A stretch of DNA of 64,000 nucleotides from Escherichia coli. GTDB taxonomy: Bacteria > Pseudomonadota > Gammaproteobacteria > Enterobacterales > Enterobacteriaceae. A program made the position numbers. The first letter of the stretch is position 1. Every line of letters starts with the position of its first letter. The stretch is taken from the NCBI RefSeq assembly GCF_048403405.1, contig NZ_CP183131.1. One strand, given 5' to 3'. Positions 46,001-52,000 of the stretch are shown piece after piece.

Positions 46001-49000
46001 CAGGGCGTATTCAAGAGCATTTGGGGCACCACGGAACGCTAGAGACAGTTTCGCCCAACGCACCAACGTCCGAGTGGACATGGTGACGCTGATCTGACCA
46101 TCTTCACCGTTTTCGCCAAGAAACAGTTTGCGGACCTGATTAGCAATCCGAACCATTCCCTTCCGCACATTTTCCGGAAGTTTCGGAGTAACACGGCCAA
46201 GAATGCTGAGTTCAGCTTCCTCATCCGCATACCCTACTTTGGTGAAACGATAGCGATCCATAGCTGCGAGGTTCTGCATCATCACCCCCTGGTACAAACC
46301 AGAAGCATCACCGGACCCCGTAGAGTTACCAGTAACGACCACACGAAACATCGGGTGCGGCTTGATGATTTCCCCGCCATTCTGAGCGATCACAAGGGGA
46401 CGCCCTTCAAGGACATCGTTGAGACCAGCCAGCTCGGCAGGGTCGGCCAAATCCACCTCGTTGATGAGGAGCAGATGACCTTCACGCATAGCGACTGCCA
46501 GAGGTCCATACATGAACTTCATGACAGGTGGTTGACCAGGCTTTTCCGCGACCAGAGCGTGATGTCCAATCAGATCTGTCAGCTCCATCCGCCCGTGGGC
46601 AGTGATTTGCTGAACAGGCCAGTTGAGACGACCAGCGATCTCGGTGATACCTGAGGTTTTGCCAGACCCGGTAGGGCCGGTTACGAACAATGCGTCACCG
46701 CCAGGCTCTTTGAGATAGGCCAAGACCTCTCGCAGAAACTCTTTGCGGAAAACGTAGTTGGTATCAGTGGCAGGGATGAAAGGGTTTGAACCGTCAGCGT
46801 AGCCGATGGCCGTTACCTTCTCCGGAATGCTGGGCATACCGAAAACCTTGCTTACTGAGAATTGAGAGTATTGAGACATAGGTGCGCTCCTATTGTGACA
46901 GGCGCACCACGTCCCGAACCGGGCGGATGCGCCCGGTTGGGCTAGTAAATTAACGTTAATTTGCTGTTTGTTTTTGGCGACCAGCTATCGCACTTTTCGC
47001 TCTCCGAAGAGAACAAAATCTGCTTACTGATGGTATTCACCATGAGTAAGAAGACTTTTAAGGAGCGAGGAGAGTAGCCTCTCCTGGAGGCCACTCCCTC
47101 AATGGACGAACATCACCACATCGTCGTTTTGACCAATGACCCCGGTTTCTTTGGCCCACTTCACTGCTTCACTGTGCGCCTGGTAGGAGCTGGAATACAG
47201 TTTCGGATCAAATTTCACCTCGCGTCCATCAGCCAGATAGATGATGCCTGCGTGATCGTCGTAAACATGAAGATTCTGTTGCATTCGACATTCCCCCTGT
47301 AGCTTGTCGTCAAAGCCAACTGACACCAGAAGACTTTGAGGACAAGCCACAGAGGCTTGACCAGAAAGAGAGGGGTTGCCCCCTCCCTTTGCGTTGACTA
47401 TCAGCAGTAACCGAACGATTCAGCGATTCTCACGAAAGGACGAGAGATTGCCCAACCAGTAGGGATACACAAAGCGATGATAGCGATTTCCATGATGTTG
47501 CTCCTAAGCAAAAAGGGGCAACATCCCCGTCGGGGTATGGTTGCCCCGATGGGTTTGAAAGTGTCGAAGATTACTCAGCGACAGTTATTACCAAACAAGT
47601 TCCTTGCCCTTACGAAGGTAAGTCGGGATTTCGAGATAATCCCAGTCAGGTTCTTGTTTAGCGACTTCTTGAACTTGAGTTACCTCAGGTTCAACGACTG
47701 CTTTGGCTTGTTCAGCCTTGGCAGCACGTTCTTTGATGACGGCCTGTACAGACCGCATTGCAGGAACTGCGAATTTGTTCCAAAGGAACAAACCGATACG
47801 CTGGAACACTTTAGCGAGAACGATGAAGGAAAAAGCAAATGCCTTCGCGCCTACGTACAGTGCGCCCAGAGATGCAAGCAGAACTACAATGAAAGTGATG
47901 ATGTGCATGGTGTTGCTCCTATGTAAAAAAACAGGGGCAACACCCGAAAACCGGGAGAAGCCCCCGGCTTGGGGTTAAGTAATGCCATACGGCATAAGAC
48001 TAGATGCTGTTTGTTTTCGGAGACCAGCTATCTCACCTATAGCCGCAGAGCGACTAAGATGATTCAAATATAGCTCACCTTTGCTAAACAGAAAACGCTG
48101 TAACTGTCCATTTTGGGCACTTCGAGAGGTCAGGTTACAGATTGACCGCATTTATCCTTTCCAGTGCGTTTATCTGTACCTCAAATTTAGGAGTATCTCT
48201 AATGGCAGAAGCACAAGTAGCACTGGACACAAACAACGACCGCAGCAACCACTACTCTCGCCCTGTTTTCAAGCAAGTTCTGAAAGTAAACAGCCTCCAA
48301 GCTCAGCGCGTCATGGAACGCAGCTTTGAGCGAGTTTCCAACTCCCTGTTCTCCATCGACGTGATCCTTCGCATCATCGGTGAGCAGGACGAAATCGACC
48401 AGGTTGAAACCGTCATCCTGGAACACATTTCCAAGGTCTCCGAAGACCTGGACAAAGCTACCGCCCAGCTCAACAAGCTGATGGAAGACAACGGCATCGA
48501 CATGATGCCCGGCTACACCAACCCGAATGAATACACCATCGAGATCAACTCTCCTCAGGTTGCTCAGTTTGCACACCTGATCCGCAAACTGGATACCCTG
48601 ATGGGGATCGTTGACACTCTCTGGCTGAACACCGTACTGACCAGCAAGCAGCGCACCGACGCCACTTACCAATGGCAGCAACGCCTCATCAAGCTGGCCG
48701 GTCGAATCATCGGCATCGAGAAACGGGCTCGCATTTCCGCCCACAGCAAAGGCAAAGAAGGTGAAGTGGCCGAAGCCGCTCCGGAATCTGCAACCGGCGA
48801 CAAGGAAATCGCAGACGAAGCCGAGAAAACAAAAGCAGCATAACCCAGCCCAAACCTTTGCCCCTCGCCCGAGGGGCTTTTTTTTGTCTTTTATGGTTGC
48901 ATTTTTTGATGCTGTGATATTATCGAAGTAAATCAGATTCAACTCAGGTAAGAACGGAGAACAACATGAAAAAGGCTTTAATCACCACCGTGGCTCTGGC

Positions 49001-52000
49001 TGTAGCAGCTCTATCTGGCTGTGCATCCACCAGCAGTTACGAACCCACAGCGTACAAAACCAATCACAGTCGCGCTTACAACATCGCGGAGGCCGGTGGC
49101 CTGGTAACAGGCATCCAAGACGCTTCTGTTCCGCGTGACAAGCTGGAGCGTCTGACCGACACCAAAACGTTTGGGGCAGCCTACGTGCTGTCTGGCTACA
49201 TGTCCCCTCAGCTCGGAATGACCGACTGGCAAGGTGGCTTGGTCAACCTTGCGAACTGGGCTATCGGCCCCAAACAGCATGGCGCTCGCAATAGCTTGAT
49301 CGCTTGGATGCCTGCTAACGAAGCAGTTTCACCGGCAGACGCTCAGGCCAAATTTCTTTCACATGTGAAAGTTTCCATTGAGTCAGCGCTGACTGATTTG
49401 GGTGCCAATTTCACGCTTCTGTATGACAAAGATGGTCGCCTAACCTATCAGTTCTACAAGAATGAATGGGGTTGCCCGACGTGGGTGAACGGACAAAGTA
49501 AGGTAGCTGACATGTGTTCCGTTAAGGTGAAAATCGTGGAGCCTCGCCTAGGGTCAGCTCCTAATTTTGTCTCTGGCGTTCAAGGTACAGCGTATGCCTT
49601 CACATCAGGCCATGAGACCGCATACAACTTTGTGAATGTCGGTAATGGGGCAGCAAGCCATGCTCCTCAGCAAGCGATCTACGCAGCTATTAGCAAACAG
49701 CTACCAGCTTGGGCCTACCTCTACCTTGCTCCAAAATCGGTTGAGCTGGATAATGGCGAAAAAGTTGCTTTCCCTTACCTTCTTGATCAGGGAAAAGCAG
49801 AGTTATTTGTTTACCCAGAAGCGTAATCAATCTACATGAGAAAGGGGCCGAAAGGCCCCTTTTTTTATCCACCACCACCAGTTGGCGCGCCTGTTTGAGG
49901 GTCTATGCTGTTTGTCGCCTCTTTTCGCTTCGCGTCAATATCAATCCCTTCCAACCGCTCCAACGCCCTTTCCTGAGCATTCTTCCGCGTCCCGTCAATA
50001 TTGAAGTCATTCCCTGCTCCAGTCAGCGAGTCGAGATTTATTGAGGCCGGATCAGGGAATTTACCGTTCTGCTGTAATATCCCAAGCCACTCATCCAAAT
50101 TAATTTTGCTCCAATCAATTTCGGCAATTTTATCTAGTGGAATCCCTTCACACTGAGGATTTTTGGGGTCTCCAAAGTTCTGCCCCAATTGAGGGCGAAC
50201 CTGTTCTTGTATAATACGAGAGAGCGGAGAATTGAAGCAGCAATACGCTTCTCTTTTTTCAATACAAGCGCCCAACACCTTAGATTTACAATAAGAGCCT
50301 ACATAGGTGCAATTCTTGAGCGCTCTTTTGGCGTTCATAGTGAACTCTTCTTCCTCGCACTTATAAATCATCTGGATCATCACCATCGCAACGACATAGA
50401 CGGTATATATCGTCATGGCAGTGCTAAGCCATGTTGTCGCAGTCTCCATCATTGCTTCGGCAGCTTGTTCAGATGCTGCGGCAGCCGCCTGCTCTGTTGC
50501 TGCATCTTGGCCTGCTGATTTCATGACATCCATCATCACTTCTTTGACTTGCTCTTTGAGCTGGTCAATGAGTTGATCAACAAACTGCTCTACAGGCTGG
50601 AAGAACGAATCAACAGCACCTGAAACGTTCTCTATATAACTTGTGAACGGTTTTGTGACTTCTGTCCACCCTTGAAGGGCAGGTTCCCTAAGTACCTGAT
50701 AAGCACCTTTAAGCGCATTACCATCAGTCAGCCCCATCACTGCGCCATCGAGCTTTGGAACGGCCATTATTAGGTTCAGATAATCGGCAAGAGATATATT
50801 GGTTGGCTTTTCACAGCAATCAGAAACTCCCCCAACAGCTATCTTGCATTCGCCAGCTTCCCCTGCAAAAGCAGAGCAAATAACGTTTTCATCCCCGGTA
50901 GGATTGTCATCCCCATCTTGGCCTGTGCAGCTCATATCCTGCGTCATGAATTGGGCTGCATTGAGCAACGCAGTAGCGCGAGCAAAATCAGTGCTTTGTG
51001 TTTTGGTCAAATCAAGGCAGTCATCTCCCATGCAGCGTATAGGCCCACCGCACTGGTACTCAGTTTCCTTTTCCAAGGTCGGAACAGAAACATCTGTACC
51101 ACAGTCATAAGTATCCTCGTGGACGTAGCACGTACCAGAACTTCCCTGAGCACCATCAACACATTTGGAACTGATGAAGCCGCACTGAGGGTTTTCTTCA
51201 TATTTCTGACAGCTATCGAGATTCCCGCCCGTGTTTACCGGACAGTGCGTTTCACCTTGAGGGTCTGTCCAGCAGTCCATTTGCCCCTTATAAAAGTCAT
51301 AGTCAGCTTTAACTCGAACCTTTTTGCATAGTTTTGGAATACCAGGCAAAGGTGACGGCTTGAGTTGAGATTCGCAAACTTTGATCCCATTGATGACTGT
51401 GCAGCCCGTAGCATCAGTCGGGTCATCTATACATGTGATCTCGCCTTCCGCAAAACCATCTACAACCCCTTTGGCTGAATCCATGCAGCTCTGTGGAGCC
51501 CACTCATCCTTGGTAATGGCTTTTGATGGGTCATAGCGTAGCTTTATGCGGCCAAAACCCTCACCTGCGCCAGTTACTGAAACGCGGATCTTAAACGTAA
51601 CAACATCACCATCTTTCACATTCTTGAAATAGGGAGTGACATCAATATTAGGGTTTCGCTCCCAACTTGTTGACAATTCACATCGGCCAGCCGTTTCTGG
51701 AGGGAAATTGCCGTCAGGGCCGGACCATACTTTAGTTTCCTGACCTGATTTACCAACCCAAACTTGCATGTAGTCATCCCACTTGGCGTACTCAAGAGTT
51801 GCAGACACTATGGCGTCTGGATTACTGACTTGGACCCGCGTGTATTCCTCATAAATCGAACAGTTGCCACTCCAGTAGTCGTTACCAACTCGGCCAATCC
51901 ACAACTCAGTACAGCCTTCTCCACAAGATTTGAGGTTATATGGACCATCATAGTGCTTCACCACAGAGGCATCGTAGTCATGGACAACCTCACAGTCCGC

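Follow-up and report, generated by a model that had tools for sequence, protein, structure and literature searches.

The plus-strand gene pair beside traN in an Escherichia coli IncC plasmid backbone corresponds to the known acaB–sfx locus

Here, we describe two adjacent plus-strand genes within a 64,000-nucleotide stretch of Escherichia coli DNA (contig NZ_CP183131.1 of NCBI RefSeq assembly GCF_048403405.1; hereafter the window, in whose numbering all positions are given unless otherwise indicated). Our analysis leads to the conclusion, held with a probability of about 0.96, that the window carries the backbone of an IncC (A/C2) plasmid and that the two genes make up its known acaB–sfx locus, i.e. 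two neighbors that are functionally and transcriptionally independent of each other. Both genes and their biology have already been published, and both are known core genes of IncC multidrug-resistance plasmids. An earlier reading of the same DNA (the original prediction) had called open reading frames (ORFs) at 48202–48843 and 48966–49826, and both were found on the plus strand with exactly these coordinates, encoding proteins of 213 and 286 residues, respectively. It had also presented them as an insert to which no family could be assigned; both proteins have in fact already been named and characterized experimentally.

The first gene (48202–48843, plus strand) is acaB (vcrx086). Its product is identical at 213 of 213 residues to the protein deposited as ‘transcription regulator AcaB’ (PDB 6N8B; E-value 1.1e-135), and an AGGAG Shine–Dalgarno sequence is present 5′ of its ATG. 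According to the summary of Hancock et al. 2020 (Nat Microbiol) given in PMC8373056, AcaB is a transcription activator with a ribbon-helix-helix-like fold that binds and activates Pacr1, the promoter of acr1-acaDC; the Pacr1 region lies outside the window. A TTG at 48142 was considered as the acaB start codon and rejected, since the mapped transcription start (48166–48168, see below) lies downstream of it, and we therefore place the start at the ATG at 48202, as in the crystallized protein. A 247-residue antisense ORF (48199–48942, minus strand), which spans all of acaB, was likewise set aside as most likely a shadow ORF of the crystallized AcaB frame.

For the second gene (48966–49826, plus strand), we searched the window with the primers and homology arms listed in the supplement of PMC11493245. 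Nine published sequences from the pVCR94 sfx locus, namely both deletion arms, the pair of cloning primers, the primers 85RT, sfxF and sfxR, and the arms for fusing sfx and traN to lacZ (sfx-lacZ, traN-lacZ), were found without a single mismatch and at the expected places (the traN-lacZ arm at 52655–52690), and the pVCR94 coordinates of vcrx085 (64178–63318) map exactly onto 48966–49826. To judge from these matches, the second gene is sfx (vcrx085 of pVCR94), encoding a 286-residue outer-membrane lipoprotein that serves as the IncC surface-exclusion factor (PMC11493245); among the roles guessed for the lipoprotein in the original prediction, exclusion was thus the right one.

The features of the encoded protein fit this assignment. 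The Sfx N-terminus reads MKKALITTVALAVAALSGC and carries a Sec/signal peptidase II (SPII) lipoprotein signal, composed of a signal peptide at residues 1–18 and a lipobox LSGC (L16-S-G-C19), the cysteine of which (Cys19, codon 49020–49022) is predicted to be acylated; the earlier lipoprotein call is thereby confirmed. The residue at position +2 is alanine, which is compatible with sorting to the outer membrane under the Lol +2 rule. Among 36 Sfx homologues, G18, C19, C170 and C184 are invariant, and this invariance suggests that C170 and C184 (codons 49473–49475 and 49515–49517) may form a disulfide. The AlphaFold model of Sfx is confident except for residues 67–102 (predicted local distance difference test, pLDDT, 35–52; window about 49164–49271), a segment which is conserved and rich in glycine and tryptophan. 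Pfam holds no family for Sfx, NCBIfam has no model for either AcaB or Sfx (Sfx giving only a match at the level of the signal peptide), and a PDB sequence search with Sfx returned no relative, the only match being a spurious one, due to repeats, with designed TIM barrels.

Having identified both genes, we analyzed how common the segment is among plasmids. The 2.1-kb acaB–sfx segment matched 796 plasmid records, 718 of them at an identity of at least 99%, as compared to 797 records for the neighboring ATPase and 302-residue ORF genes and 752 for traN. Since the segment is as common as the flanking backbone genes, acaB–sfx is to be regarded as conserved backbone. A search at the protein level found Sfx in 837 plasmid records (711 at an identity of at least 99%), and the segment is 100% identical to that of many IncC conjugative plasmids (MOBH, MPF_F), the hosts of segment-bearing IncC plasmids including Klebsiella, Escherichia, Salmonella, Vibrio, Proteus, Aeromonas and other genera. 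Moreover, the GC content of the segment (0.48–0.54) equals that of its flanks, and the order acaB-sfx-traN is kept in distant Aeromonas relatives (e.g. pAsmA) as well as in one very divergent metagenomic element (contig SRR29792785_54809, 201–4124; hereafter L011). The variable presence expected of cargo in an IncC/SXT-type hotspot was accordingly not observed, and neither the insert nor the variable hotspot of the original prediction could be upheld: compared across related elements, the two genes are conserved backbone genes of known function. In Aeromonas salmonicida pAsmA (L004, 5565–7572), sfx is separated from traN by two small hypothetical ORFs together with a transposase of IS1595, indicating that the sfx–traN junction, and not acaB–sfx itself, can accept insertions.

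The regulatory region of acaB was examined by placing pVCR94 coordinates (PMC4207636 Table S3, Dataset S1) on the window, where the window position corresponds to 113144 minus the pVCR94 coordinate. In this way, the two AcaCD boxes reported by Carraro et al. at pVCR94 65014–65042 and 65019–65047 (PMC4207636 Table S3) are located at 48102–48130 for acaB and, overlapping it in the opposite orientation, at 48097–48125 for vcrx087. The core palindrome of these boxes, TGTCCATTTTGGGCA, lies at 48105–48119, and the sequence of the box region, AACTGTCCATTTTGGGCACTTCGAGAGG, agrees with published AcaCD boxes such as TAGGTGCCCAAATAGGGCACTTCCAGAG. Across the 64 kb of the window, the pattern TGYCCWWWWWGGRCA has a single exact match, which falls on the acaB core, and four matches when up to one mismatch is allowed, versus 0.2 expected by chance. 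Two near-consensus AcaCD-like boxes with one mismatch were also noticed at other positions, one (59765–59779) upstream of dsbC (59689, minus strand), where an AcaCD promoter has been published, and one (17887–17901) just upstream of an Rhs gene (13557–17819, minus strand).

The transcription start of acaB determined in pVCR94 by rapid amplification of cDNA 5′ ends (5′-RACE; 64976–64978, PMC4207636 Table S3) would, by the same coordinate transfer, fall at 48166–48168 on the plus strand, 34–36 nucleotides 5′ of the ATG. In pVCR94, acaB and vcrx087 are described as having divergent AcaCD-dependent promoters in a shared intergenic region (PMC4207636 Table S3; PMC8373056). A corresponding box, divergent from vcrx087, is present in the window according to its sequence and published position, and would make the acaB promoter AcaCD-dependent here as well. 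In line with AcaCD dependence, RNA sequencing reads of vcrx086 amounted to 450 in the wild type, 17 in the acaCD deletion and 1093 in the complemented strain (PMC4207636 Dataset S1). Downstream of acaB, an intrinsic terminator on the plus strand (48860–48885; hairpin 48860–48877) is formed by GCCCCTC-GCCC-GAGGGGC followed by eight T residues (−16 kcal/mol, z −3.1); pAsmA of Aeromonas and L011 have kept both its stem and its run of T residues, and the same terminator is drawn in Figures 2B and S3 of PMC11493245.

Between this terminator and the sfx start codon, within the 122 bp that separate the two same-strand genes, we recognized a putative constitutive sfx promoter (48897–48923, plus strand), read from the sequence as TTGCAT, a 15-nucleotide spacer and TGaTATTAT (extended −10). 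The −35 region GTTGCAT is invariant in pAsmA and in the divergent L011 locus, and IncC and pAsmA also share a conserved −10 region; a consensus promoter scan made no call on this element, owing to its 15-nucleotide spacer. At the 3′ end of sfx, a hairpin terminator with a GGGGCC/GGCCCC core followed by seven T residues is located at 49838–49866 (hairpin 49838–49865; −20.4 kcal/mol, z −5.0 on the plus strand). As traN, which converges on sfx, has its 3′ end at this very hairpin, the terminator is probably bidirectional (−16.5 kcal/mol, z −2.3 on the minus strand). Therefore, as claimed in the original prediction, each gene is followed by its own hairpin and T-run, and sfx is bounded by the acaB terminator upstream and its own terminator downstream, with a conserved promoter-like element between the acaB terminator and its start. 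These signals are akin to the situation described for pVCR94, where sfx is expressed constitutively from its own AcaCD-independent promoter and independently of PacaB, and where reverse-transcription PCR (RT-PCR) and an sfx'-'lacZ fusion established that neither AcaCD nor the deletion of acaCD alters its expression (PMC11493245). The RNA sequencing reads of vcrx085 (508 in the wild type, 535 in the acaCD deletion and 1904 upon complementation, not significant; PMC4207636 Dataset S1) agree with a regulation of sfx that is independent of AcaCD.

What the two proteins do is known from previous studies. Rivard et al. 2024, using transposon-directed insertion sequencing (TraDIS) on pVCR94, arrived at the gene of a 286-residue Sec/SPII lipoprotein flanked by traN and acaB (PMC11493245, Table 1), and established that sfx is necessary for full exclusion, that it suffices for the residual exclusion phenotype, and that sfx and eexC together are sufficient for the full phenotype. 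The same study demonstrated that Sfx fractionates with the outer membrane, that its gene is expressed ∼150-fold above eexC, and that it is required in the recipient only. In mating assays, Sfx lowered transfer from donors carrying the cognate TraN, with specificity being set by the donor TraN allele; the traN product, a mating-pair-stabilization adhesin, is thus the donor-side determinant of Sfx specificity (PMC11493245). With respect to acaB, PMC8373056 places the gene within the AcaCD regulon, so that AcaB and AcaCD stimulate each other and conjugation is turned on, and this regulatory loop has likewise been established experimentally.

Taken together, these data give the following picture. 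AcaCD, an FlhDC-like master activator, binds the box at about 48102–48130 and switches acaB on, and AcaB in turn activates the acr1-acaDC promoter elsewhere on the plasmid, giving a positive feedback loop that sets conjugation to ON. Behind the acaB terminator, sfx is constitutively expressed from its own promoter. Its product is exported by Sec, and after processing by signal peptidase II and lipidation of Cys19 it reaches the outer membrane, where, in a plasmid-bearing recipient, it lowers the mating efficiency of IncC, IncA or related donors alongside the inner-membrane protein EexC. According to the model proposed by the authors of PMC11493245, Sfx would do so by masking the recipient surface receptor of the cognate TraN, and not by binding TraN itself. 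AcaB is accordingly one half of a positive feedback switch for IncC conjugation, and hence for the mobilization of SGI1-type resistance islands, and Sfx and TraN define surface-exclusion groups that bear on which resistance plasmids enter which cells.

The traN gene itself (vcrx084; 49865–52663, minus strand, annotated as TraN in IncC records) occurs as two alleles among IncC plasmids that share an identical acaB–sfx segment: 313 traN records reach an identity of 99% or more with the traN of the window, and 420 are 95–99% identical (∼98.3% for the ones sampled). When compared to pAM04528, the window shows 87 mismatches in 7.8 kb, and half of them (44 of 87) cluster at 51500–52000 (TraN residues 261–269 and 340–366); a second cluster is found in the traU/EAL/traW region (53500–54750). 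Both clusters look like recombination patches. As TraN sets both Sfx specificity and host range, the TraN-medium isoforms described in PMC13104618 may be the counterparts of these two alleles.

An alternative view of the locus, close to the original prediction, would be that of a horizontally acquired two-gene cargo, i.e. an abortive infection/defence or exclusion pair, residing in a traN–ATPase hotspot like HS4 of SXT/R391. It is true that both genes run against all of their neighbors and possess their own terminators, and that an Aeromonas relative does carry insertions, namely two small ORFs plus IS1595, between sfx and traN. However, this view is refuted by the 796 records of the segment against the 797 and 752 of the flanking backbone, and neither the base composition, which is that of the flanks, nor the synteny, which is kept across deep divergence, is that of cargo. 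In addition, no defence family was matched in PADLOC, which gave nothing for Sfx and two sub-threshold matches only for AcaB (E-values 0.003 and 0.008), leaving the suggested abortive-infection role without a meaningful match, and acaB belongs to the transfer-control circuit through its mutual activation with acaDC (PMC8373056). We consider the chance that the genes are such cargo to be practically negligible. Slightly less remote, and still very improbable, is the view that acaB and sfx form one functional unit, either by co-transcription or by AcaB controlling sfx, such that exclusion would be turned on together with conjugation. Their adjacency on the same strand with a gap of only 122 bp, a linkage kept in most relatives, would be in agreement with this, as would the increase of vcrx085 reads from 535 to 1904 upon AcaCD overexpression, which is not significant. 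Yet a strong terminator separates the two genes, and the published RT-PCR and sfx'-'lacZ data revealed no change with AcaCD (PMC11493245). Moreover, sfx is located away from acaB in pAQU-type plasmids, adjoining mobI in pVAS114 and occupying a separate locus in pAQU1 (PMC11493245), and functional orphan sfx genes are carried by integrative mobilizable elements without acaB (PMC11493245). Hence the first ORF, an activator of acaDC, is not a partner of the separately transcribed lipoprotein gene, as had been supposed, and we retain the reading of acaB and sfx as two independent backbone genes.

Several points weigh against this reading or parts of it. The acaB gene of the window has two mismatches to the pVCR94 primer 086F2 and is therefore an allelic variant, although its protein is identical to crystallized AcaB. 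The equation of our Sfx with the Sfx of pVCR94 (Sfx94) is based on the primer matches, the shared length, the mapped coordinates and the fact that sfx is nearly clonal among IncC plasmids (711 records at an identity of at least 99%). Furthermore, receptor masking has the status of a published model of how Sfx may act. As regards this last point, Sfx could instead bind the tip of the donor TraN directly, thereby serving as a decoy or blocker. It is the TraN allele that governs exclusion specificity (PMC11493245), sfx and traN remain genetically linked across deep divergence, and in L011 Sfx, at 30% identity, and the TraN N-terminal part diverge most, AcaB (51%) and the C-terminal part of TraN (42%) being better preserved, a pattern expected of co-evolving partners. 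Against direct binding, the authors of PMC11493245 argue that if outer-membrane proteins of the two mating cells bound each other, mating aggregates should be promoted and not disrupted, and that Sfx, made constitutively and at a high level, would suit the masking of an abundant receptor; also, pAsa4c, pAhD4-1 and IncC belong to one surface-exclusion group despite their divergence. On balance, we deem direct TraN binding unlikely, albeit with a real chance of being correct, and the receptor-masking model of the published study is the one followed here.

Beyond the IncC plasmids, we analyzed the wider distribution of Sfx-like proteins using a profile built from the 36 Sfx homologues, with which 1.84 billion representatives were searched. 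This retrieved 630 clusters (at 50% identity), 352 of them with an E-value of at most 1e-10, which are mostly full-length lipoproteins of roughly 280–320 residues. Similarly, a Foldseek search of AFDB50 gave 85 significant structural matches to Sfx (E-value at most 0.001); among the matches listed, most are named ‘lipoprotein’ or uncharacterized and measure ∼260–330 residues, with 18–30% identity, and they span the Proteobacteria (Alcaligenes, Comamonas, Pseudomonas, Pantoea, Proteus, Sutterella and others). A previously published blastp survey had found 130 unique Sfx proteins, all of them from IncC, IncA or ACL plasmids or from a small number of integrative mobilizable elements (PMC11493245). 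The contexts of the distant Sfx-like genes (P0048–P0191) are mixed, and many are on short contigs or in settings too generic to interpret; some adjoin toxin–antitoxin genes, some a DUF927 primase-like gene, and some are apparently chromosomal.

In the metagenomic L011 locus, the order acaB-sfx-traN is preserved with traN convergent, at identities of 51% for AcaB and 30% for Sfx; its TraN, with 663 residues, shows 42% identity along the 540 residues at its C-terminal end and is devoid of most of the IncC N-terminal region. The conserved order in such a divergent element indicates that the module is old. Its fastest-diverging components are Sfx and the N-terminal region of TraN, and one may speculate from these comparisons that Sfx co-diversifies, or co-evolves, with the variable part of TraN. 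That the Sfx family is much broader than published and the acaB-sfx-traN module ancient is a tentative proposal, to which we give somewhat less than even odds. If correct, surface exclusion of the Sfx type would generally characterize a broad range of conjugative or mobilizable elements that bear TraN, and collections of Sfx/TraN pairs could help to delimit exclusion groups and to identify TraN receptors. The sole new element of the present analysis is this hint of a distribution of Sfx-like lipoproteins far beyond that published; Sfx itself is without a solved structural relative.

With respect to the surroundings of the locus, the acaB–sfx pair lies between minus-strand genes on both sides, traN on the one and a CobS/MoxR-like AAA ATPase (45911–46879) on the other. 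The ATPase side is further occupied by a minus-strand run of exo, bet, ssb and the 302-residue ORF, an 83-residue ORF (47099–47350, minus strand) and the vcrx087 homologue (47588–47908, minus strand; 106 residues by ORF call), which is hypothetical in IncC records. Within approximately 30–64 kb of the window, acaB and sfx are the only plus-strand ORFs of at least 150 residues that do not lie, at least largely, within a longer minus-strand ORF. The original prediction, which regarded them as the only plus-strand genes of the conjugative backbone, therefore holds for this part and fails for the region left of ∼30 kb, where further plus-strand genes are present. These comprise a hypothetical gene also annotated in other IncC plasmids (10198–10860), an IS5-family transposase beside the Rhs/immunity region (12102–13082), an IS3-family transposase ORF (28810–29622) and, at the left end (270–5118), a PAS-domain ORF together with a methyl-accepting chemotaxis-like (MCP) ORF. 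The PAS and MCP-like ORFs are missing from that position in the IncC plasmid pT212, and the IS5, IS3, PAS and MCP genes represent accessory or variable content of this particular plasmid. Within the transfer operon, an EAL-domain gene (cyclic-di-GMP phosphodiesterase-like; 53783–54454, minus strand) is embedded between traW and traU and bears the same annotation in IncC records.

The closest known systems are those of the IncC plasmids themselves. AcaB of pMS6198A/pVCR94 (PDB 6N8A, 6N8B) is the same 213-residue protein in the same position, with the same AcaCD box and divergent vcrx087 promoter, and the acaB gene of the window departs from the pVCR94 allele by two silent or allelic base differences near codons 6–8, nothing of which is substantial. 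Likewise, Sfx of pVCR94, representing the surface-exclusion lipoproteins of IncC, IncA and ACL plasmids, shares its length of 286 residues, lipobox, position between traN and acaB, flanks, internal primer sites and terminators with the protein described here, and no difference was detected. The second exclusion system of the same plasmid, EexC/TraG, accounts together with Sfx for all exclusion (PMC11493245). EexC resides in the inner membrane, has the VirB6-like TraG as its target and is encoded near traG, whereas Sfx acts in the outer membrane; eexC lies outside the window, in which its primer arm had no match. Finally, TraT of F/IncF plasmids is, like Sfx, an abundant, constitutively produced outer-membrane lipoprotein that acts in the recipient and reduces mating with related donors, and has been resolved as a decamer by cryo-electron microscopy (PMC11733297). 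Since Sfx has no Pfam family, NCBIfam model or PDB sequence relative, it falls outside the TraT family in sequence and fold, and is best described as the functional IncC counterpart of TraT.

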